This document shows, in pieces, positions 9,923 through 33,313 of a stretch of 64,000 nt of DNA. Position numbers and translations under genes: made by a program. Location of the stretch: the NCBI GenBank assembly GCA_000934665.2, contig JYFJ02001486.1:1-64000 (forward strand). Direction: 5' to 3'. This DNA is from Catajapyx aquilonaris. Taxonomy: Eukaryota. The notes beneath the pieces were generated by a model, which was not told the origin of the DNA, did not search any database, and worked only from the letters and a program-made list of their open reading frames with translations. Within the stretch, counting starts at the first letter, position 1. Every line of letters begins with the position of its first letter.

Positions 9923-17076
<7,154 letters not shown>

Positions 17077-17709
17077 CTCTGCCTGTCCCGCTCCCGAGGT
17101 CCGATGCTGCGGCTTTTGTTTCTGGACGTAAGACCAGAGGTACCCTCAACCCCGAGTGCGACGACGACCTCCGACCACGACGAATAAACCACAACCGGGA
17201 ACACAACAACACCAATCGCACGCAACGCACTCGGTCTAGTAACTACAAGTTACGCCAGATGGCGGGATTGGCGGACGTGGATGGCAGTTGAGCTGGTGGC
17301 CAAACGATGGCACAACGAAAGGACATCAAAACCAAGGGTACCAAGAGAAGTCTCAAGGCCCTCCTCATTGTCCCGGTTTAGTTTATTTCGCAACGTCATA
17401 TTACAGTGTAAAAAGTATTATTAGAGTGTATTGGCATAAAAATTCAGTCCAGTCTTGAATGGGGGCAGGAAGAGGGTCTCAGTGAGAGTGTCTGGCAACT
17501 GGGCACCCAAGCGCGCGGTTTCGCTCTTCACGTCACGACTCACGGGACCGGAGAAGAAAGAAGGGAAGATGGCCTCCTATGGTGCATGATCTGGAGAAAG
17601 AAGGATCTCCACTTCTCCAGCGCCCAGCCCGAGGAGCCAAGAGTTAGCGGTTGCCGGCGAGGCCTCGTCCTAGTACACGCAAGACCAGCCCGATAACCTC
17701 CTGCAAGTC
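17077..17709. promoter_or_regulatory. Probable bidirectional promoter and 5' UTR region between RNF113A and ORC4
   Basis: CpG-rich stretch between divergent start codons about 630 bp apart; contains GATGGCGG (YY1-like) and TGGCGGGA (E2F-like) at about 17258-17267. Confidence 0.6.
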
Positions 17710-20700
17710 ATGTCTTCGTCGTCGCCGGAATCAGGTGGTGGAGGTACGTCGCACACCAACTCCCATGGTGCATGTGCACAGGGCAACTTCTCACTGCAAC
17801 CAGCCCTTGGTGAGACACCATGGTGCTGCCACTTGAAACTCCAAAGCCATGAAGGCTGCAGTGTGGCAGTAACCACTGTGCTCTCAATGGAGACTGCTAG
17901 TTGCAGTGGTACATTGCCTTGAGACATCAACCCGGGTGCCACAGGCTTGTCCAGCGGGTTCCCCAAATACAGTATGTTAGCAGTGAAATAGACCATATTT
18001 GCCAAAATGAACACAGATGAGCAGACCGAGTAGTGTCTACTTTTACTTGCCATGTGGCCAGCATAGATTATTATAAAATGATAATGAGGTTGTATGAGTT
18101 CCCGGCTGGTTCGCCAGCGACGGTACTCTCTTCCTCGAGCGGTCATCGGACCTGACTCGCATTTCTTGGTCGGACGGGGTGCTTGGGAAAATATCCCACC
18201 CCCGTCCCTGGGTTGGACCCGGCATTGCAGTACAGCCGGGGCCAGCCCTCCTCTCCCCCACCCTTCTCACCCACCCCTACCTAGCAATCCCACACCTTCC
18301 TCTCCTACCCCCGGCTGCCAAGGCTCGACTCAGACAGAGCCATACAAGCTGGGTAACCCTTCCTTCCAACCAACCAACCAACAGCATAGATTATGTATGT
18401 TATGACTCAGGATTTTTAAAATAATTAATATTTCTAATTATGATGATTGAGGTCTTCTGAGTGGTCAGTGGTGAGCATTGAAAAGTGCTGCCCTCTTGAA
18501 GGAAAGTAATGTAGTGAGTGGATACTTTCAAATTTCATCATTGGGTGGTCTAGTTAGTGCACCTACAGTTACTCCTTGCATTCATGATAGTGGATGTTAA
18601 TGTAATTGTCCCTAACACACACCTCTCAGAGCAGGCTAGTAAGTTCTGAGCACTGCCTTTTTACATGACACCACTCTGACGGCCCTTGTCAAAATCCAGT
18701 AGCATCTATGACATGTAGCTTGGCTTTATGCCAATCAATGTGGAGATCTGCCTGCCTGCCTGCTCATGTCACTGTCTGCATGCTGCAGTGGGCTGACCTC
18801 CACACTGGTAGGCTGTGCTTACGGTTTTATAGCAGGGCTCATGTCAACAGGCTTTGGTCAGTAGCCTGGGATATATAGGAAACATCCATAACTTGAATAT
18901 CCTTAAGTCAAAGTTCATTATAAGAGAAATAAAACTACAATGTTGATTGGTGACAAGTAATAAGGATTAAACTCCCTCAACTTCAATCACCATAACTTGA
19001 TCTGCTGGCAGTAATTTACTATGGAAGTAATGCTACTTTGCCAACTCCACATGTTGCATGAGAGTTAGGTCACTCTTCTAGTTTCTATGTTCATAAGTAT
19101 TTACACCACTCACGTTTTTAATGGCATGACTTAATAGGCCAAAGGTCTCATTCATTGTAAACAAACACTTACTGCAAGAATTTAAATACACAGCTCCCTG
19201 CCCCATATTTCCCGATAAGTGGACGTGCAGCAGCAAGCCGTTTAAAAAATACCTACAATTCTGCGACTTACTTTTTGCCAGGGAAAAAATCAGAATGATC
19301 TGTCAAGGGTATAGGCAAACTCCGCCGTTGCCATTGCAGCTGTAAAAGTGGCCTCGCTCCTAATTGGCTGGGCGGACTGCTCCAAGCTCTGGGTAGTAGC
19401 CACTTGCCACCTGAGCCACCTTTTTTTACACCTAGTGGCTCACATTACCTCCTTTTAAACTAGACCTTTAAATGTTTTCATAATTTATCAGAGGGAGTGG
19501 GCAATCATGTAGAATTATCTATGTCTAGGATGATTACAAGGGGTGGAAGCTGCCTTTAAAAAACCACATAGATGTCGCAATAGGATGGCGTCACCTTCTT
19601 ATACATAGCATGAGGTGGTAGATGGCTCTCTCAAGATGCAACTCAGGTTAGTAGGTTTCGGACACTTCAGCCCCATCTTGTGCAATAATCAAGATCGAAA
19701 CTTATGGTGCCAGATCCGGTGATTTTCACACAGAGTGCTATTTTTATACCCCCACCTAAAACATGCAGAATCCAGTGGGAAACATAGGGTTAATGACAGT
19801 TAAGATCTTGCTGTATTAGTATATCTTTATCTTTATGGTAACCTTTATAATAGCTGTATAATAAATATCTAATTTTTCTGGCTGCAGGACTACATCTACC
19901 AGCAGGAGACCTACATCGTAGTTTTCTTAAAAGACAACTGAACTCCATGGTATATGAGGATTCAAGCACAGAAAATGTCAGACAAGGTCTTCTCCATCTT
20001 TTCAAGGGAGTAATCAACAAGGGTGAGAGCAACTCACTCATTATATATGGAATGTCTGCTCAGGAAAAACTACCTGTAAGACTTTTTCTGTAATACTGCT
20101 GCTTTTTTTTAGAAGTAACTTGACCAATTCTGGAGCTCTGTCGTGAATTATTGTTAAGCTGTGATTTAAAAAATGTAAAGGAACCACCTGGGGCAGTGAT
20201 GCAATATTTCAATGCAGTATTTGGTTATTCTCATCTACCGTACTCAAGATGTAGCAATTTCTTGTATGTGTAAAGGATTCGTTTCTTTTTGTCTACTTGA
20301 ATAAAGAAACTATGCATAAAAATAATGGGGAAAAGAACAGTTCCCATATTACATAACGTTTTGGTTTCTGGCATTTATTATGACAGCTTCACAAATGCTT
20401 GCTGACAATTTTATGATTTTTAAGGATAGCTTGTTTAAATTAATAAATATGCATTATTAAAACAGTAGGTTAAAAATTAGGTGTTGTAAAGAAATGAGGA
20501 GGATATAAGAAATTATATTATACCACAGTACTGACTAATAAGGTGTCCACGGACACACTCTTTTAACTCGGGGCATGTATGTACCATTGGAAGCAAATGA
20601 ACAACTGATTGCAGGGTTATTTTGTTTTCTTGGAGTGGCCAAGGCAATTAAGGTCTTGAAGCATAACTGGTCTGTATGTGTGACATTGGATTCTGTGCTG

Positions 20701-23700
20701 TACTATCCTGCTACAAAAGAGAATATTATCAATATCACTGTGACAAATTATCTTCATCTTTTGGCTTGCAATAATAATGATTCATAAAGTTTGCTATCAT
20801 TACAAGACTTTTTATGAATATACAGGGTGTTCTCAAATTCGTCTGTCAAATGATACGGGTGGTAGGGGATGTTCTGCATGGCATGGACCCGAAAGGCTGT
20901 CAGCAACGTTGAAATTGATGTTTATCATGACAAGTATGGATACCCCCCGTACGTGCCTGCATCACTAGTTGCCGAGGTCGCACTACCAGACTGTTGCTGA
21001 ACCACCTGACTCCAGCAACCAGCGATGCAGGCATGTGCAGGGGGTATCCATACTTGTCAGGATAGTCATCATGCACTTCGAAGGTTGACATCTCCTTTTG
21101 GGCCATGCCATGCCTGTACCATACGCACCCCCTTACCACCCATATCATTTTGGCAGACGAATTCACAAATACCCTATATAGGCCTAGTGTAGCTTGTCTA
21201 AAATGTGGAAATAAATATTATAATATGTCCTCTCATATTTTATGAAATATTAATGGTCATGACTAGTTATTATTATTATTATTATTTGAAAAGGGCATTA
21301 ACAATATTTGATGATTGATGGCCTCCCAAGAAATAAAATCAGTGGATTGATACATGCTCCTTTTATGCATTTGCTGTATTGAGAATGAAGCAGGGCAAAA
21401 TACTTCTACATTCCATTCTTTTGGTCATAAGGAATAATGACCACAACTTGAATTTTTAAAATAAAATTACCACAATTTAGTCATTATCAGGGAAAACCTA
21501 TTTTTTCTGTAGACACTTGGTGTTATAATACTTAATTATGCAAAATAATTTATTCATAGCCTCTTATGAACAGATTGTGAAGGAAGTGATGAAAAAGATG
21601 GAAGGGGATTGCATTCTGACAGAAAAGTATTTTACTGTCTACCTCAATGGGATTCTCCACTACAACAGCAACATGGCTTTTAAAGAGGTCACTGAGCAGC
21701 TAAAAGTTGAGTCAAAATTTGCAGATGACCTCATCTTTTCAGGTAAGATGAAACTGTGTTTCAAATCATGACAATGAGAATGACTCTTAACTACATTTTC
21801 AGATGGTCTGAAGTTCGTACTGGAGGCTTTAAGAAGTGGTAACCGAAGTACCTGCCCAATAATATTTATCCTGGATGAATTCCAATTATTTTGTCACCAA
21901 AGAAATCAGTCATTATTGTACAATATATTTGATGTTGCCCAATCAGCCCAGGTAGCTTACCATTGTTTTGATGCATTTTAATTAGTGAGATAAAAATTTT
22001 AAAATGATCTTATTCCTTATTGTGTGTTTTAAGAATGTGAGTGTTACACGTATATTTCATTGAAGGTAGTGTTTATAATAAACCAATTGTTAATTAACTT
22101 GATAAGTATTCAATTATCAACTTTATCTTGATTTTCCAGACTCCAGTTGCCGTGGTTGGACTCACAAGTGAGTGGAATGTCACGGAAACTCTGGAAAAGA
22201 GGATTAAGTCGAGGTTTTCAAACCGGCAAGTCATACTAGGACCCGTGCCTTCATGTGATGTATACTTGGAGACAGCTCAGTATTGGTTGAAGTTTCCTGA
22301 AAACTTAAAGCCTGAGGTTGACGTTGAAGAATGGAACAGGCATGTGGCTGATTTATTCAGTGAGGCTGGCGTGGTTCAAGTTTTGAAAAGTCATTTTGCC
22401 ATCATCAACAGCTTCTATGGACTGAAGCATTTGCTGGTGAGTGGACATTCCTTTTTTCCTTCATAGTGTATACTTCAGTCAGAGAGGTCTTGGACAGACC
22501 TTTATTTTCCTCAGGAGGCTCAATATAACCTAGAAAGCATATAAATCAGCATATGAATAATTTTATTATGTTTTTTTTTTTCCACTGCAGAGTTTTGTTG
22601 CCTGCCGATTAAATGAAAACCATCCTTTTTTGGAGGCTGAAGACTTCAATCACCTGGCTGAGGAATTACAAAATGATGCCCGGGCAGCTTCTGTTGCAAA
22701 TCTTTCCATTTTGCAGCTTTGCTTGGTAAACATACATTGTTGGGCAAGTAAGGTCCCTAATGATAATATGGCCATAGAAGGTAATATGGCCAATGGACTG
22801 TATCTCGGTTAGTTACAGCGGAATCCAGGAGTTAGTGCCTGCATGGTGTTCACTGTTCAGGCAGGTCTTTAGAGGGGTGATGCAGAATATCATTGCTTGG
22901 CGCCGCGCAGTTTGGCGTCGGCCAGCCATATTGCCGAAAGAATCGTGTCGCGCAAAGTGCGTTCTGAATTTTTGCATGTAAGTTCGCCATTGTTTCAGGT
23001 CCCATTGGCGTGCAGTTTCAATTGTGTGATTGTTTCATATGCACATTTTAATGCTTATTCCAGTGCACTCATTGTGATTTGAGTTACCCCAACTATGACG
23101 CCTTAAGTTAGGATTTTATGTAAAATCGTCTGGGTTGCAATTATGGCCATGTTGGCCGTATTAGAAAGAAACAGAAACCTACGAAGAAGAGGTTTTCGCA
23201 GAAGGAGAATGTAAGGACAGAAAGGGGGAAAAAAAGTTGCAGTGATTTTTGAGTCTTCCATTCTCAGCTTTTCCTTACTTCCTTTAATTCTTATTGCAGT
23301 GGCAATGCAGTGGCATTTATTTGATAAGTACTTATGCAATTACATTTTTTCCTTAGTTTCTATTACCTAACTTAATCTTCATTTAAGGAGTTACAACAAA
23401 AAAACCGCAGTTACTTTGCTAAATATTTACGAGCATTTTTTTAGTGAGCGAAAGTTTGTTGGCCATATTAACATCACATGCTTTTAATATGGCCAAATGG
23501 CATACCTTTGCGCGAAAATATTTTCCCAATTGTTCCCTTTCAGCTATACATCTGATTATTTTGTCCTCCACTAGCAAGGTTCCAATGTACTATGGGCGCC
23601 AAAAGAATTGACCGGAGTTGATGGGTATATGGCGCTATATACAGTATACCCATCAACTCCGGTCAATTCTTTTGGCGCCCATAGTACAAGATACCGTACT

Positions 23701-24879
23701 TTGTTTTTTAAAATCTGCCAATACGGCTTCAGGAAAATTCGCCAAACCTTAGCTTGGCCATATTACCATCAGGTACCTTATTATAGGTATTACCGTATTT
23801 ACTCGCATATAAGACGCACTTTTTTCCCGATTTTTGTAGCTCAAAAAGTAGGGTGCGTCTTATACGCGTGTGCGTCTTATACGGCAGGGCACAACGGGTG
23901 AAACCCGTGAGAAATCGTGAAAATCGTTTATTGAAAAATTTAAGCTTGTCGGTTTGATGTCCTGTCAGCACAGTTGATCACTTTTCTCTTGAAATCGGCA
24001 CGGTACGACCTGCGTTTCTCCTTCACTTCCATTGACATGCTCTCCCCGTCCCCACACGTGCACAATTCCGGTGTGANCCCCTTTACTGGATTCTAATGGA
24101 TTCCACACGCACATGCATTGCACATGCATTGCACACGAGGTTGCTGCCGGCAGCTCGAGGCCAGTTCCCAAACTACGGCAATAAATCTGGGTGCGTCTTA
24201 TATGAGTCAACAACCGATTTTCCACGATTTTCCGCCTCAAAACCGGGGTGCGTCTTATACGCGTGTGCGTCTTATATGCGAGTAAATACGGTAGCTGAAA
24301 ATTTATAAAAGGTGGGATCATAGTCTGAATGATTTAAAAGGACAGCTGCATTTTTTCCTATGCATACTTTCTTGGTAAAGAAATTGATGGCAGTTGCTTC
24401 CGGTAATTGAGTAGGTTTTACCCGAAGTTTTACCATAATAATTTTGCAAATGTTCTTGTCATGTTACAGATGATGTAAAATTCATTGCTTTTCTTTACAG
24501 CTGATTGCCATTCAGCGAGTTCTTCGCGATTCTGATCTAGATTGCTTCAACTTGAACATGGTTTTGCATGAGTATGCTAAATTAAATCGTCATCAGTCAG
24601 CTTTGAATGATGTGGATGAGAAAGTCTTAATGAAAGCTTTTGAAGGACTACTGGTAAGATTTGTTGAATTTCTACTGCGATCTCATTTGTTCAGTGTACT
24701 GAGCAAAAATAATATTACAGACCTTGGAGCTTGTTCACCAAGAAAGTCGGAACCAAGAGCTGGACCCCAAGAATCGTGTGTTTGTGCTGAACTTGAGCAA
24801 GAAGCAGCTTGCTGCTGTATTGAAAAACACTCCTTCTTTGCCCACTGAGGTTAGGCAGTGGGCAGCTGATAATATATAA
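17710..24879 (+). CDS. ORC4: Origin recognition complex subunit 4 (AAA+ ATPase), 8 coding exons; first exon uncertain
   Basis: Exons: 17710-17743 (alternative candidate 19622-19646, same phase), 19888-20075, 21574-21742, 21803-21951, 22140-22436, 22591-22725, 24501-24653, 24721-24879. Motifs: [16 protein letters not shown], Walker [39 protein letters not shown], Arg finger [44 protein letters not shown] at about 25059. Confidence 0.93.
18072..18381 (+). mobile_element. 5'-truncated retroposon (LINE/SINE 3' end) with (CCAA)n tail
   Basis: 13-bp TSD CAGCATAGATTAT (18059-18071, 18382-18394) around a C-rich body ending CCAACCAACCAACCAA. Confidence 0.75.
20823..21176. mobile_element. Tc1/mariner-type palindromic MITE
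   Basis: TA|CAGGGTG start and ACCCTA|TA end; arms pair throughout (TGACAAGTATGGATACCCCC / GGGGGTATCCATACTTGTCA). Confidence 0.8.
22751..23778. mobile_element. TA-flanked non-autonomous DNA transposon in an ORC4 intron
   Basis: TIR AGGTCCCTAATGATAATATGGCCA..TGGCCATATTACCATCAGGTACCT; internal repeats of AATATGGCCA/GGCCATATT. Confidence 0.7.
23586..23688. repeat. Perfect 44-bp inverted repeat with 15-nt spacer, nested in the previous element
   Basis: 23586-23629 is the exact reverse complement of 23645-23688. Confidence 0.92.
23793..24291. mobile_element. pogo/Tigger-type MITE
   Basis: TA flanks; perfect TIR CCGTATTTACTCGCATATAAGACGCAC; internal repeats GGGTGCGTCTTATA; contains the only N I saw in the window. 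Confidence 0.88.
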
Positions 24880-25905
24880 ACATCCCAACACCATTCCAAC
24901 AATCAAGTATATTCTGGTGTTGATACCGAACTTAATCAAGAAAGTCAACTGCAGCATTTGTCAACTTCTGCCATGAAGCTGAGGACTGCATTGTTTGTAT
25001 GAACCTGATGGATTATGATTGGGGTTATTGTCATCCTTATTGTTATTTAATTTTAAAAAATAAACATTGCTGGCATGTCACATTCCTAGCAGTATGATGA
25101 CATTAGTGTTTCACATTTGAACCATTTTGAAAATGGTATGATTTGCAACATCAATAAATTGATTGGTTTACACATCTCGGGTTATGTTGATGCTACTGTA
25201 AATACATTATAACAAGCCCAATTGAAATGGCAGGATGAGTGGGATAGGCTGACTAACAAATGGTATCATACTGGTAGCTTCCTATCCACCGTTTCCACTG
25301 TGAGAGATGGTATACAAGGATCATATTTGGCTTACCTGAATCGCTTTGGCCATTTAGTGGAGAAAGTGGTGGAGGATAGGGCCCAATGTCCTTGCAGATA
25401 TGGGTTCTTCACAATGTTTAGTAATATAAATTAAACATCCCTATGGCAAATATCTATATCCCCCATGTTTTTTTTGTCAATAACTTGAGTTGCTAGAAAT
25501 AATTTGCTGTGAAATAAGCATTTTTAGATGGCACCCACTGGAGTTTGTGTCCGTTTTGGGTAGGTGTTTTCCCATTACAGTACTACAGTGCTGGAGGGTA
25601 AAAGTCATACTAAAACTTGTGGATTGAATTGCGAATGGGAGTCCCAGATGAAGTTTTTGCACCCTGATTCTTATCATCACATTGATTCAGAGCGAAAATC
25701 ATCAAAGAGTTGCCCAAGACCTGTTATTGACTTTGATTCTGAAAATGAAGTGACTTAATATTATGGGAACTTCATGTTCGTGTAATATTAATCAGTAGTA
25801 ATAGTAAATATCTTGGCAGATATCTACTGTGTTATCCTTCAAACTTTTATTACTCGAAAATATGAATCTCAGGAGATTCGAGTGGATTCGAGTTATAAAA
25901 GTTCC

Positions 25906-26636: not shown

Positions 26637-27514
26637 TACATGTAGGAAACGTTAACGTATGAATAGGGAAGGAACAAACTCATTGCATTTATAACCACAA
26701 GCACATGTGATGCACCAGTCGAAAAGCCTGGCCTAATGCAAATGACTGATCTTTCTACATTTCGGGCCTTCAAATTGGCGTCAAACCTTTCACTTCATCC
26801 TGACTCGTTATGCAACCACAATCTTGTACCACGTGTGCCATAACCTGCAGGCGCAAGAAGGCCGTAGTCAGGTTCTCAGCACTTACCCTGATATACCGTA
26901 CGACCGTACGTATTTTGTCGTTTATTGGACGTAGTACCCAATAAGCTCAGTGCCCAATGTATAGGTTCTGTTGCAGAATAGGAAGTGGTATGTTAAGTAA
27001 TTTTTTTATTACCGCAGGATAAATGCACATTTCTGACTTTATAGCACGTTTTAGAAGCTATACATGCGATTTAGTTCCGCGGCACTTTTGATCTCAACTG
27101 TGCATCATTTGTGTTTCTGTTCTTGTTTTTTCATGACAGGGATTTTAAAAATTGTTCACATGCAAAATGTACTTTAACATGTTAAATGAGAGGTACAAAG
27201 TGAGACTCCAAGAGCATGACAACACATTTCACGGTTACGGTGAATAATTGAAACCTGTGCGTAGGAAACCAACAACATATAAGTGGTCGTTATGCCAGCA
27301 ATCGATAGAGGACGTCGATATATGCGAGCCTTGACAGGACTTTCTTCAGAAGGTTGCTTGAAATGAAAAAAGTAGGCCACTGACATCATTCCTACACCTG
27401 CAAAGGCGACTGTAAGTGTCACACTTTTTTGTGTTTGTTTAATATTCTTGATCCTGCACTAGTCATTGTTTCATTATGACGATGATGATGATGAATATGT
27501 TAATAGGCCGCAAA

Positions 27515-30500
27515 ATGGACCGGTACGTGAAGGAACAAAAGATCGGAGAAGGCACCTTCGGCACGGCCTTTCTGGTGCACTGCGTGGGAGAACAGGACCA
27601 ACGTTATGTGATCAAAGAGTCCAATGTGTCGCTTATGTCGCACAAAGAGAGAGAAGAAGCGCGACGAGAAGCCCGGTTGTTGGCTCGTCTCCGTCACCCC
27701 CACGTGGTCTCCTACAAGGAATCCTTCGAGCAGGGAGGCAACTTGTACCTGGTCATGGAGTACTGTCCTGGTGGAGACCTACATGCCAGAATTTTGGCTC
27801 AGAGAGGGACTTGGTTTGAAGAAGCTAGGATTTTGGACTGGTTTGCTCAATTGTGCTTAGCCTTACATCATGTGCACAGACACAAGATTTTGCATAGAGA
27901 TATCAAGAGTCATAATGTATTCTTGACTGCCGACGAGCGCTTGAAGCTGGGTGACTTCGGAGTTGCCAAGGTGAGTGCGAAAGATTATATTCCTGATGGG
28001 CATAAATCGATAAGCATGGTGTTAAGTGTTGTCTCAGGGTTTTTTCTAACGCTATATACATCATTATACCTTCACTTTATGATGATGTACGGTTGTAGGC
28101 CTGCTGTGATTAAAAATTTGGTGAGCCATGCGGGGCCATGTGTGAATTTGTTATATTTGTGTACTTTTTTTTCTCCCCGATCGAGGTGCTCAATTATTCC
28201 AATAAGGTATGGTCAAACCTTAAATATAGCAGCTTGTGATATACAATAGGAAGAGTTGTTGTGGGTACTTCTATCGGAACTCAAAAATTTACACAAAAAT
28301 AACAACTTCGGACGAAATATGCGCTCACTAAAATACTTGGAACGCAATGTATTTCATAATACTGCGTATTTTGGCATATTTTAGATTATTTTAGCTAAAT
28401 AGATGGTTTCAAAGGGATAAGTGTCAGGGGTAACAGGATCAGCTACAAGTATAGCAAGTAGTCTAACGTAACCTCCTACATCATGTGTCAGGAAAAGTTC
28501 ATGAAATGAAATATTTTGACGCCTGTACAACCATCAGCACACACAACTTGCTAGTGCTGATGATGAAATATTATTATTGGTGACGTATTAAGAGTGTCTG
28601 AATTTTTTGAAAGTGTTATCAGAAACATCGCCTACTTCTCATTGCATACGGTACCTGTAAATCAACAAAATAGTCGAGGAATTGAAAAAGTTGAAAAGTT
28701 GGAAATAGCAAATACGTACAGTATTTAAAGCCTCCAAAAAGTACGTGTTCACTATTTCAGCACCAAGTCACATATTTCTTTTTGATATTATGTGAAAATG
28801 AACCCAAAAAGTCACTATAAAATGTCAATAATTGTAAACTTTACAACTTCGTTAATTAATTATTTTTATTTCCTGTTCACTTTTACCACAGATACTGACT
28901 GGATCTGTTAACCTGGCTTCCACCTGCGTAGGCACGCCTTACTACCTATCCCCTGAGATATGCCAGAACAAGCCATACAACAACAAGAGCGACATATGGG
29001 CCTTGGGATGCATTGTGTATGAACTTACAAACTTGGCTTACCCCTTTGAAGCCTCCAACATCAAAGTAAGCCTTCATTCGTCTTCTGAAACGTTATGTAG
29101 TATACTTGACACAGTGCAACAGCACAATTACTTGTAAAGTATAATGATGCACATATTACAGAGTCCAAATGAATTTGTTAGGTAGCACATATTTGCGGAG
29201 ATTTGCCAATAGTGGATAATATACAGGGTGGTCCAAGTTCAAGTGTCGTTTTATAACGGCGATTAATAGCAGTGATTTTGCCATGACGTAGCAGCGACGC
29301 GTAAAATGTCCCACTTCGGCGCATCTTCGGCGCAATCGAAGTGGGCAATTTTACACGTCGCTGCTACGTCATCGTTAAGCGCTTCTATTAATCGCCGTTA
29401 TAAAACGACACTTGAACTTGGACCACCCTGTATTATAATGTAAAATGCAAAATCACTGGTACCCCAATTTATAAGTGCAGTAGCGACGCCTACAGCTACA
29501 ATTTGCCTAAGGAGTAATTTATTATTGTATACAGTAGGCATATGCACAATGCATGTACGTATATGACGGTATGCGGTTAACAAATAATTAATTTCCCTTC
29601 AGGGTTTGATAGCAAAAATCCTAAAAGGAAGCTATCCTCCTGTGCCCCTTCGCTACAGTTACGAATTGCGCAACCTGATCGGGCAAATCTTTCGACGCGA
29701 TCCTTCCCAGAGGCCATCGATCAGCTCACTTCTACGAAAACCAATACTTGCCGACCCAGCCAGGAGGTTTTGCCCCGAACAAATGTCGCTATGTGACGAG
29801 CACCCTTCAACTCCAAAACACCGTCCTAAGACCAAGCTTCCACCTTTGTCAGACACAAAAAAAATTGCGCAGAGAAGACCTCGCACTTCGGTTGGACATT
29901 CAACACCAGAGCAGAAGTTAAAGAATCAAAGTTTAGAAGAAGAGTCTGAAGACGATGTTGTCGTCGAAGCTAAGCCCCCTTCCTTTCTTCAGCTTCCTCC
30001 ACCAATAAGAAAAAACAGTGCTGATGTGGAAGTTGACCGAGTTTGTAGCAAATCTCTTGACACAAAGTCAACTGAGTCAGTGTTAATGAATAAGGAGGAG
30101 AAATGTTCGACTTTGAATACTGTTTCTTCCGATGTTAATGCAGATCTTCACAAAGAGAAAGAAATGTCTCAAGATAAAAGTGAACCTCCTTATATGGATG
30201 CTCAATTTACTGAAACCGGCAATAGACTTAATGTTGGCACAACCTGTGATGAAAATAAGATGTCTATACCTAACATTGTTCAACAAGGTGATGATGAAAT
30301 TATAAATGAAGAAGGGAACACACATGAATCATCAGACATCACGGATTCTGGTCCAGACAACATTGCCAAAGAGCATGCTGCATATGACATTAAAGAGGTT
30401 GCCAAAGTTATACAAGCGATGAATCCTCCCAAAGTTATTGAAGATAGCCCAACAACTGGTCACACTGAACATTTAATTACAAAACGTCGCAACACCCTGG

Positions 30501-33313
30501 ATACGACGTCTGCCTCTGATGACAGAGTGTCAAGAAGGCATTCTTTTCCGGCTCTCAAACAAGAGCAATTTTTGGAATCATATATATCAAGTATCGTGCC
30601 ATCTCTACCCGATCTGAATGTAAATAACTACAACACGCTTACTGACCACCTCGAGATGAAACCTTCACAGGAAACGTCCTTGCATCCCGACAAAGTGTCT
30701 TCGATTCCACACATCAGCAAGAAACTGGAACACGCCAGTGAATCCACCAAAGAAAGTCCGTCTCTCCCAGATTTACCAGACAATGATAATGTCACCAAAA
30801 AACGCAAAAATGAAATGGAAGAAACTGACGATTCTGGTATATCTTGTTGGTCACCTCAAAGAGAGCATGTGATAACTCCACTCCCTGATGTGATAACACC
30901 TTTAACCAACAAAGGAAATAATGTTATTCAAGAAGACCGAGACCTGATTCAATTTTCTCCTCTTCACCGGAACAATCAGAAGTTTCCACCTTTGTTGCGT
31001 TCCGAGTCAGAAACCAGCGTATTGATCGACTTGGAAGAAGTTAAGCTTCCTTCTTTGGCGGTGACTAGAAATGAACTTGATGGTATCTGCATTTCAATTC
31101 ATTTATAATTTTTATTATCTCATGTCGTTACAACACAACAACTTTCTATTATTAACAGGCAGCGTTAGTCCCCGGCAGCGACGAGTTTCCATGCCGAACA
31201 TCATCCCTGGCAGTGTAGATCATGCTCTCTCGGACTTTTTCCCTAATTTGCAGGATAAGGTAAGCATAATGTTATGCCATACCTTGTACTCTACAGTCTA
31301 CAGTATATCATATGTTCAGATGTGGAGAGATTTGCAGACAATGAAATGGCGCAATTAATGTAGGAATAATGTGGGAATGCTGTCATACACTGTAAAACCT
31401 TTACTGACACAATTTTACTTTGACTCTTGAGAGTAGACTCTAAGAGTAATTATGACAATTTTTCAGTGCAGTATGGCAGATTTTGAAGATGTATTTGGTC
31501 CTGATGCTATGCCAAAAACCGCATTCAGAAGTCCAAATAATCACCTCTTAGGTGACAAAGGAACCGCTTTAGAAGGATCAACTTGGCAGTTGGGTAATTC
31601 CTCTCTAGGAAAGTAAAGTGCAAATGTGGGATTTTTTTATAGTTTATATATATAGCTACTGTACTTCAATTCTGAAATAACTCTGAAAGTCGATACCGGT
31701 ACTCACTTCCCTATCCTGACTCTAGTTGCGATTGTGTCTGAACTGCTTTCTGATGCACTGCCTTCATATGCATGCAGTCCGGCCATTATACGAACCCAGG
31801 TATGCCTACAACAATATACGACACTATACTGTACAGTAGTCCCGCTCATAAAGAATGGTACGATTCTATTGACAAAATGTTTATAGCCTCCAACCCCTGG
31901 GTCACCGGCATGTTTTTAGGGGTCATGAGGAAGGCCGTAAACTGGGAATTTAATTCAAGAAAAAATAAAAGAAAAAAACAAGGAAAAGTAGGACAATTTT
32001 AGAACTGAGAGAAATTAATCTCAAATCTAGACGTAAGCATTGGGCCAGGTTGAACAATTTGGTAATTTAAAAAATATATATATATGAAAAATTATGATTG
32101 GGGGGATGGGGACATATGGGTCGCGGGTCGAGGAAAGGTTGTATACATAGGGCCACAACGAAATCAGGTTGGAAATAATGCGGGACAGTCGGGATAAACA
32201 TTTCGTCCATAGAGTCGTACCGATGGTACCATTCTTTATGAGCGGGACTTACGTCTCAACTGGTTTTCGACACGCTCGTCGGATCTTGGATGTTTGCTTG
32301 GTGTGCCTGGTGGTAGGCTATATGATAAAATAATAATGTACTGTATGGCGTAGGCTATATATTTTGTTAGTACAGTACGCACATTGTACTACTTAAAATC
32401 GCACTTTATTAGACGTGCCAGACTGCAATGCATGTTCTTTGCCTCAAGTCAGGCAGTCGTAAAAATCCGGTGCCATACAATCGTTCTAGTAATTCTCACT
32501 GTGGTTCGGTGCACTATTGCACGATAACCTATCTATGTACAGTTGTATACACGTATGACACACAATATTAAGGAAATCAACATGACGTGACCAGCAACTT
32601 GTTTTATTTTTTCAGGTCAAGACGACAACAAAGGTAAATACAATTCTTGCCAAAAGGACACGGATCATTGTTATGTAGAAGAAATAAGACAAGAGCTAGA
32701 AAGAGCTCTGGGACTAAATACCTTCCTTACGGGTAATAAAAATAGTATGCAAGTAAATAAGTAGTAAAATTCTGCCTAGTTATTTTAAAGGAAACACGAT
32801 GGCACACGTATTACCTAATCGGGGCTAGATGAGCCCTGCTTAATTGAACTATCAAGGGCTGAAAAATGATAAACACCAACTGACAAAATTGCATTCTTGG
32901 ATTACTTAATTTATTCATTCTGACTTGCTTATACCGCAGGCTGGTATATTGAATTCGCTCATGCATCTTTAAAAAAAGTATGAGACAGGTTAAACTGTTA
33001 CTTTTCAAGAGTCAGTGAAGACCATCGTCTACTTCCAGAATTATTATAAATATACTATACGAGTAGTTTAATAACTTTCTGTTACCAAAGCTCTAAAATT
33101 AAACGTAGCGTCGCTGTACCGGATGCAATGTAAATTTATACAACCTTTTAATTTTCAGCATACAAGGAAATGAGGCGAATCAATGAAGAACAATACGACA
33201 ATTTTACTGCAATAGTCAGAAATGTGGTAAAGATTTTAGGTCCGGAGAAAGAACATTATTGGAATAAGGTTCTTCAGCTTATTTTGGCTGAAGGAATGTA
33301 CCACGAAAACTAA
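27515..33313 (+). CDS. NEK1: NIMA-related serine/threonine kinase, NEK1-like, 7 coding exons
   Basis: Exons: 27515-27970, 28892-29065, 29603-31082, 31159-31259, 31467-31593, 32616-32732, 33159-33313. Kinase motifs [56 protein letters not shown]. The C-terminus [43 protein letters not shown] matches the NEK1-type C-terminal helical domain. Confidence 0.9.
29224..29430. mobile_element. Tc1/mariner-type palindromic MITE in NEK1 intron 2
   Basis: TA flanks; perfect TIR CAGGGTGGTCCAAGTTCAAGTGTCGTTTTATAACGGCGATTAATAG; pairing continues almost to the centre. Confidence 0.9.
31834..32250. mobile_element. Tc1/mariner-pogo-type MITE in a NEK1 intron
   Basis: TA|CAGTAGTCCCGCTCATAAAGAATGGTAC mirrored by GTACCATTCTTTATGAGCGGGACT; right tip degraded. 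Confidence 0.75.

Follow-up and report, generated by a model that had tools for sequence, protein, structure and literature searches.

A 64,000-nt stretch of contig JYFJ02001486.1 from Catajapyx aquilonaris (positions 1 to 64,000; the window) carries a gene on the forward strand that is identified as an orthologue of ORC4, a subunit of ORC (origin recognition complex). The window looks like animal genomic DNA, with spliced genes and a G+C content near 40%. We consider it likely that this is an expressed animal ORC4 whose P-loop was rewritten by a compensated double frameshift, and that its ATP site has probably been lost. The exon reads GMSAQEKLP in frame where other ORC4s have the Walker A motif GxxGxGK[ST], and the motif SGKTT lies one base out of frame in the same letters. 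Residues that ORC4 supplies to the ORC1 ATPase site are intact. A scrambled P-loop combined with intact ORC1-activating residues amounts to a natural separation-of-function ORC4 allele, and the locus is a clean example of a compensated pair of single-base changes rewriting a nearly invariant motif.

The P-loop region of the present allele reads TCTGCTCAGGAAAAACTACCTgt. In the exon frame, positions 20049-20075 are GGA ATG TCT GCT CAG GAA AAA CTA CCT, coding for GMSAQEKLP and followed by gtaag, and the residues GESNSLIIY are encoded from 20022. The frame from 20051 reads NVCSGKTT, which puts SGKTT at 20060-20074, and the third frame over the P-loop reads ECLLRKNYL. The original prediction, made from the sequence of the window, had described GMSAQEKLP in frame and SGKTT one base off, and its letters are correct to the base. 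An extra G at TCT G^C gives three glycines and a Lys-Thr, in register with the in-frame first glycine. Chance expectation was simulated with 200,000 nine-codon strings drawn from the codons of this ORC4 gene. GK[ST] in another frame near the expected position was found in 0.23% of the strings; when the in-frame GGA and AAA were held fixed, hidden GK[ST] was found in 1.2% and SGK[ST] in 0.13%. The two other frames of the whole ORC4 coding sequence contain just two GK[ST] motifs, one of them at the P-loop site, and in-frame GK[ST] is absent from all 427 residues of the spliced window ORC4. The hidden motif goes beyond chance expectation and is unlikely to have arisen by chance.

The gene was assigned to ORC4 by structure, profile, and protein searches. 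Exon 5 matched solved structures of human ORC4 chains (E = 3e-13), yeast ORC4 (5e-6), and fly ORC4 (2e-5), and exon 3 matched human ORC4 with E = 5e-4. When exons were scanned singly with the Pfam profile ORC4_C (PF14629), exons 5, 6, and 7 scored 18.3, 21.4, and 25.7 bits on successive parts of the profile, only exon 7 being above the cut-off of 25.3. Exon 5 was also searched exhaustively against 1.84 billion representatives, which produced 138 hits. Twenty of these were looked up, and 11 of them have a cluster member named ORC4; the named homologues are from sea anemone, sponge, turtle, brachiopod, Trichoplax, and insects. Among the 20, the nearest ORC4s are scattered over cnidarians, sponges, vertebrates, brachiopods, and insects at like distance. 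The spliced window protein is 36.5% identical to the Exaiptasia ORC4 over 375 residues (E = 1.5e-77), and no closer relative than about 52% identity over a partial stretch was found in the exhaustive exon 5 search of representatives. A word-index search of exon 5 against longer proteins gave 73 candidates, none of them scoring, and one of exon 2 at near lengths gave no candidates. Compared with solved structures, exon 2 had a chance hit alone (E = 1.3); the N-terminal part is too diverged and the anchoring loop is gone.

An alignment set was built from the 47 of the 138 hits that are 380-520 residues long. Four of these (P0019, P0050, P0082, and P0099) were left out for N-terminal parts that are unaligned at the loop, P0019 looking like a vertebrate gene model without the loop, and 43 ORC4s were kept. 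Of 113 conserved columns, the window ORC4 has the consensus residue in 78 (69%), a share that ranks ninth lowest among the 44 sequences, and by this comparison it is a diverged ORC4, yet no outlier.

Contigs, not raw reads, from four sequencing runs (X1, X3, X4, and X5) were compared with positions 16000-25500. Runs X1-X4 are DNA-like and come from one sample (2014), and X5 is a small run from another sample and study (2022). DNA contigs cover exon 2 from 19758 to 20530 (X1 and X3) and from 19741 to 20530 (X4). The X1 contig has 772 letters on 773 places, its one gap being a single base deleted at 20103, where intron 2 has a run of T; for X3 the count is 770 letters on 773 places with three gaps, and X4 has 788 letters on 790 places with two gaps. 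These lengths amount to net loss only and give no hint of an insertion across exon 2. No difference within 20049-20075 is among those listed for the DNA contigs, the length arithmetic being the stronger argument. In X5, contig record 25 is identical to 19886-20075, with no differences and no gaps, and is joined to exon 1. This run covers exons and almost nothing else: its sampled-word share is 0.23 compared to about 0.28 estimated for the exons in the stretch, several intronic bins have a depth of 0, and its contigs link exons 1-2, 3-4, and 7-8 at GT-AG sites. From its exon-only cover and spliced contigs, X5 behaves as RNA and is called RNA-like here. The extra G that the original prediction proposed to look for near 20058 was found neither in the X1, X3, and X4 DNA contigs nor in the RNA-like X5 contig. 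The window letters are present in two samples, in one of them at transcript level, and an assembler slip is excluded by the DNA runs. The locus serves as a warning for automated annotation, as the gene resembles an assembly error, yet the available reads say otherwise.

Two AG dinucleotides, at 21558-59 and 21572-73, precede ATT GTG AAG GAA GTG, and the original prediction had asked whether the next exon starts at 21560 or 21574. The RNA-like contigs point to 21574. Record 25 of X5 has its last letter at 20075, record 26 runs from 20046 into intron 2 as far as 20192 (about 117 nt of intron), and record 27 consists of 30 unplaced letters followed by 21574-21735 and 21796-21947, where seven letters fit both sides. 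A k = 31 graph with both spliced and unspliced molecules would give just such a set of three contigs meeting at a 30-letter node (20046-20075), and from their ends we infer the splice 20075|21574. Record 27 does not match from 21560 on, as it would with an acceptor at 21560. With the present letters, an acceptor at 21560 gives CCT CTT ATG AAC AGA TTG TGA, which ends in a stop. If intron 2 is retained, the frame stops after VRLFL and the product has about 80 residues. An intronic tblastn hit at 20237-20302 (E = 4.0) was considered as an alternative exon and rejected as chance; its translation has a stop.

Conservation across the 43 ORC4s shows how far the loop has departed from its family. The first glycine is present in 42 of 43, the fourth-position glycine in 39, and both the glycine before the lysine and the lysine itself in all 43, with the residue after the lysine being T in 26, S in 16, and K in one. 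The window ORC4 has A at the fourth position, E before the lysine, and L after it (GMSAQEKL), which departs from GxxGxGK[ST], and it is the sole sequence of the set without the Gly-Lys pair. Five of the 43 also deviate from GxxGxGK[ST] (for example, Trichoplax EPPASGKT, and GPRGVGKK and GRKSSGKT), and all five keep G-K. The Walker B acidic pair is present in FILDEF (D155 and E156). The original prediction had called Walker B and the arginine finger intact, and both motifs are indeed there, ILDEF with its D at 21874-76 and KSRFS with its R at 22212-14.

The other residues of the ATP machinery fall on either side of a divide between the pocket of ORC4 itself and that of ORC1. According to Tocilj et al. 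2017 (PMC5291709), the ORC4 pocket comprises the P-loop with R69, the Walker B DEFD with E160, the sensor-2 R277, and E113 as a bridge to ORC5, and the ORC1 pocket receives from ORC4 the finger R209, the tether R205, and Y174. In the window ORC4, DEFD has become DEFQ (its last column holds D in 32 of 43), the position of human R69 is Ser, and the sensor-2 "trigger" arginine, human R277, aligns to Tyr273. The loss of the sensor-2 arginine is supportive but weak, because this column has Arg in only 26 of the 43 ORC4s. Human E113 is kept in exon 3. The residues acting in trans are all kept, human Y174, R205, and R209 corresponding to window Y170, R201, and R205; these columns are Y in 41 of 43 for Y170 and R in 43 of 43 for both R201 and R205. 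Drift in the cis elements of the ORC4 site with intact trans elements for ORC1 forms a coherent pattern.

The window and human proteins have the same register before and after the loop. Human minus window numbering is 1 at GESNS (human G58-S62, window G57-S61) and again 1 in exon 3 (human 89, window 88), so there is no net change in protein length, and with equal register on both sides one base would have been lost and one gained within about 18 nt. The lysine lies as far from the xLNG strand as it does in the ORC4s of vertebrates and sponges, and an insert directly after GK[ST] occurs in none of the 43 aligned ORC4s. In the restored reading, GKT is followed by T and then by the hydrophobic pair IV, where other ORC4s have TLL, WVV, MLI, or ALV. 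From these letters we infer a two-indel history. The ancestral loop would have been ...GGC TCA GGA AAA ACT ACC|gt with a phase-0 intron. One G would have been lost near 20058, in the codon for P-loop position 4, which most ORC4s fill with Gly, and one base gained just before the donor, most simply T at 20075, about 17 nt from the G loss. GSGKTT would thereby have become AQEKLP, with six codons off register and with flanks that keep the ancestral frame, length, and splice sites. The invariant lysine would survive because the A5 run reads AAA in both frames, and the glycine before it would be changed to Glu and the Thr/Ser after it to Leu. In P-loop nucleoside triphosphatases, the backbone amide at the glycine before the lysine contacts the phosphates and the Thr/Ser binds Mg. 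The pocket of this ORC4 is thus predicted to bind ATP-Mg not at all or very poorly.

The original prediction had offered two readings of the loop, and they fared differently. A real compensated double frameshift, with splicing to the acceptor at 21573, is upheld by the lack of an inserted base in the DNA and RNA-like contigs, the start of exon 3 at 21574 to which the RNA-like contigs point, and the same human register on both sides. A base missing from the assembly or haplotype, with a phase-1 donor joined to the upstream AG, is contradicted: no extra G is seen, the 21560 acceptor runs into a stop with the present letters, and the five-residue insert it places after GKT is found in 0 of 43 ORC4s. 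It may instead describe an evolutionary intermediate rather than the present state. Either indel alone with normal splicing leads to a premature stop. On a speculative path, the T gain would have come first, with the frame kept via the AG at 21558-59 and a five-residue insert as the result, and a later G loss would have moved splicing back to 21574, with the P-loop paying for it.

With the compensated frameshift, ORC4 would serve as a structural AAA+-like ring subunit, like Orc2 and Orc3, and would still complete the ATPase site of ORC1 with its arginine finger and its tether arginine and tyrosine. Were its own pocket empty, the ORC4/ORC5 interface would have to make up for this. The broader proposal, that an animal lineage turned ORC4 into a nucleotide-free scaffold, left with nothing but its trans-acting finger for ORC1, by a compensated frameshift, possibly through a viable intermediate, is a tentative one that we hold with a little less than even confidence. 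If true, ATP in the ORC4/ORC5 pocket would be dispensable for metazoan origin licensing, and the switch would have left a datable fossil in the hidden SGKTT.

Metazoan ORC4s (human PDB entries 5uj7, 7cte, and 7jpo; Drosophila 4xgc) are the best solved-structure matches and share family and domain order with the window protein. Common to both are the GESNS-loop-xLNG spacing, the Walker B D-E, Y174, R205, R209, E113, and ORC4_C. They differ at the loop, where human ORC4 has G-P-R-G-S-G-K-T and the window ORC4 has G-M-S-A-Q-E-K-L, and in the replacement of R277 by Tyr, R69 by Ser, and DEFD by DEFQ. Human ORC4 is described as binding ATP at the ORC4/ORC5 interface (PMC5291709), and the window ORC4 is probably unable to hold ATP as human ORC4 does. 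The end state proposed here is that of Orc2 and Orc3, in which the ATP site has diverged and the AAA+ fold is retained for the architecture of the ring; PMC8222357 reports no ATP-gamma-S seen in yeast Orc2 and Orc3. Those two subunits lost their motifs anciently and in all eukaryotes, whereas the change in the window ORC4 is lineage-specific, leaves a readable nucleotide trace, and keeps the finger for ORC1. The ORC4s with deviant loops (Trichoplax EPPASGKT, GPRGVGKK) show that the P-loop constraint is not absolute in all lineages; unlike the window ORC4, all of them keep Gly-Lys, and all but one keep Thr/Ser. In this comparison of proteins, none of them has a trace of a shifted frame.

Laboratory Walker A mutants of yeast, fly, and human ORC4 are functional analogues of the window allele, but are engineered point mutants. 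According to Loo et al. [quoted passage not shown] Given these reports, loss of nucleotide binding by ORC4 is plausibly tolerated. Against easy tolerance, ATP is described as critical for keeping human ORC1/4/5 intact during purification (PMC5291709), and ATP-gamma-S was seen in yeast Orc4 (PMC8222357). In the solved complexes of human and yeast that these two papers present, ORC4 is one of the subunits with bound ATP. Of the background given with the original prediction, the statement that budding-yeast Orc4 has a non-canonical Walker A disagrees with PMC5291709, where Orc1, Orc4, and Orc5 are given characteristic Walker A and B motifs; the statement that ATP binding by human ORC4 supports ORC assembly is backed only indirectly by these sources. 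The role of the ORC4-bound nucleotide is unclear because ATP is hydrolyzed only at the ORC1 site. The window protein suggests that this nucleotide may be structural and replaceable, and offers a test of that.

Several other explanations were weighed against a compensated frameshift. An assembly or sequencing error, or a deletion in a single haplotype, would make GMSGSGKTT the true loop, with a phase-1 donor joined to the AG at 21558-59. A single added G does give a textbook GxxGxGKT, and the acceptor at 21560 then keeps the frame open, but the three DNA contig sets show net loss only with 20049-20075 unchanged, an RNA-like contig of a different sample and study is identical over 19886-20075, and the match of X5 record 27 begins at 21574 and not at 21560. 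The five-residue insert after GKT (0 of 43 ORC4s) also breaks the human ORC4 register. For the two samples compared, this explanation looks refuted, and we regard it as very improbable overall. Ordinary substitutions could also have produced a degenerate loop, SGKTT then being a coincidence aided by the retained AAA. Other ORC4s do have deviant loops (5 of 43), and the 1.2% expected for hidden GK[ST] with GGA and AAA fixed is rare, yet not negligible over many windows. The full SGK[ST] is expected at only 0.13%, however, and the same added G also restores the fourth-position glycine and brings all three glycines into register, with the restored GKT plus T running on to IV as in other ORC4s. 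Substitutions would have to account for GSGKTT becoming AQEKLP, five of six residues changed at once, and we consider this origin improbable.

The locus might alternatively be a redundant or decaying copy, with a second ORC4 elsewhere in the genome that has an intact P-loop and does the work. A consensus match of 69% (78 of 113), ninth lowest of 44, is in keeping with decay. By contrast, all eight exons share an open frame and every intron has GT-AG, spliced transcripts of the gene are seen in the RNA-like run, the most critical trans residues are intact, and the compensating second change would itself be a sign of selection for the frame. No second ORC4-like stretch was found in the 64-kb window, and no G..[GASC].GK[ST] in its six frames, which leaves no alternative canonical P-loop exon there. 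Summed depth per DNA run over 19804-20437 and 21389-22339 is that of one long contig, within 0.2, so no other contig of at least 90% identity is present at these places in the DNA runs. A decaying copy is, on balance, an unlikely account. The idea that the P-loop is restored when the gene is expressed, with ribosomes shifting frame or RNA being edited at the A-rich run, draws on the slippery look of the A5 run in GGAAAAAC. The RNA-like contig has the DNA letters with no gaps, so no base is inserted in the RNA, and ribosomes would have to shift twice, in opposite directions and 17 nt apart, as a single shift leads to a stop in the exon 3 frame. We know of no such double ribosomal shift, and this explanation is exceedingly improbable.

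Some observations weigh against a compensated frameshift with loss of the ATP site. The joint from 20075 to 21574 is not among the joints listed, and the splice is read from contig ends, with the 30 leading letters of record 27 unplaced. X5 is without a record as RNA, its RNA-like character notwithstanding. The DNA runs may come from the source sample of the window itself and still allow for the peculiarity of one individual, and since contigs drop minor alleles, an intact second haplotype is possible. No close relative turned up in the searches, the best full-length ORC4 identities being 31-41%, and the ancestral GSGKTT is derived from one sequence. The perfectly preserved hidden codons suggest a young change, whereas the sensor-2 loss is a weak sign of longer relaxation. 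The lysine is kept, and residual nucleotide binding would be possible. A second, diverged ORC4 whose P-loop is intact, located beyond the 64-kb window that was searched, is unlikely but also belongs here.

The ORC4 gene model is based on open reading frames, splice sites, and spliced contigs, and has eight exons (Table 1). Joined, they form an open frame of 1,284 nt (427 codons and a stop), and each of the seven introns is bounded by GT..AG, the last junction having been placed one base over with its letters unchanged. Transcription starts at 17543 or further upstream. X5 record 25 consists of 17543-17741 joined to 19886, and two letters are ambiguous at this joint between exons 1 and 2.

Table 1. 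Positions of the ORC4 exons and of features discussed in the text, numbered from the first letter of the window
Feature	Position	Strand	Description
ORC4 exon 1	17543..17743	+	5' untranslated region (UTR), start codon 17710, coding 17710-17743; ends in phase 1, donor GT 17744
ORC4 exon 2	19888..20075	+	Carries GESNSLIIY, then the rewritten P-loop; matched by X5 record 25
ORC4 P-loop codons in frame, GMSAQEKLP	20049..20075	+	Site of GxxGxGK[ST]x in other ORC4s; Lys codon AAA 20067-20069 kept
Out-of-frame SGKTT	20060..20074	+	Frame one base ahead of the exon frame
ORC4 intron 2	20076..21573	+	GT 20076-77; AG used 21572-73; AG unused 21558-59
ORC4 exon 3	21574..21742	+	IVKEV... YLNG...; gapless alignment to human ORC4 89-128
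ORC4 exon 4	21803..21951	+	Walker B ILDEFQ, D155 at 21874-76, E156 at 21877-79; X5 record 27 joins exons 3 and 4
ORC4 exon 5	22140..22436	+	EKRIKSRFS with tether R201 and arginine finger R205 (22212-14); Tyr273 (22416-18)
ORC4 exon 6	22591..22725	+	ORC4_C domain
ORC4 exon 7	24501..24653	+	ORC4_C, 25.7 bits (cut-off 25.3); X5 record 28 joins 24652 to 24720
ORC4 exon 8	24721..24879	+	Includes stop codon

Intron 3 (21743-21802) has just 60 nt, and introns 1 and 2 have about 2.1 kb and 1.5 kb. The seven letters TTTTCAG occur at both edges of intron 3, so that the aligner put the exon 3-exon 4 junction at 21735|21796 in place of the true 21742|21803. The 5' UTR includes a short upstream reading frame at 17570-17590 (ATG GCC TCC TAT GGT GCA TGA), which lies within the RNA-like contig. 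At 22415, part of X5 and each of the three DNA contig sets have T in place of C. This change is synonymous (TTC to TTT, Phe272) and sits in the codon directly before Tyr273, the replacement of the sensor-2 arginine.

In the DNA runs, contig depth adds up to thousands over three stretches (16317-16633, 17902-18535, and 23608-24558), compared with 20-45 elsewhere, and many partial contigs and loose ends occur in them. They look like high-copy repeats or transposon fragments, located upstream of ORC4 (16317-16633) and in its introns 1 and 6. At least one undetermined base (N) is present near 24075.

Upstream of ORC4 is an open frame on the reverse strand (14625-15002) with no Pfam match at E <=0.01, the end of which presumably is similar to the part of RNF113/CWC24-type splicing factors that precedes their zinc finger. 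This frame and ORC4 may have a common bidirectional promoter region (G+C of 0.50 at 16001-18000). Downstream of ORC4, a protein kinase gene occupies 27452-31108 on the forward strand (Pkinase, E = 1.4e-40 for 27521-27997). Its N-terminal sequence may be NEK-like. It has a second kinase exon at 28886-29050 and a long open exon without a Pfam match at 29588-31108 (506 codons).

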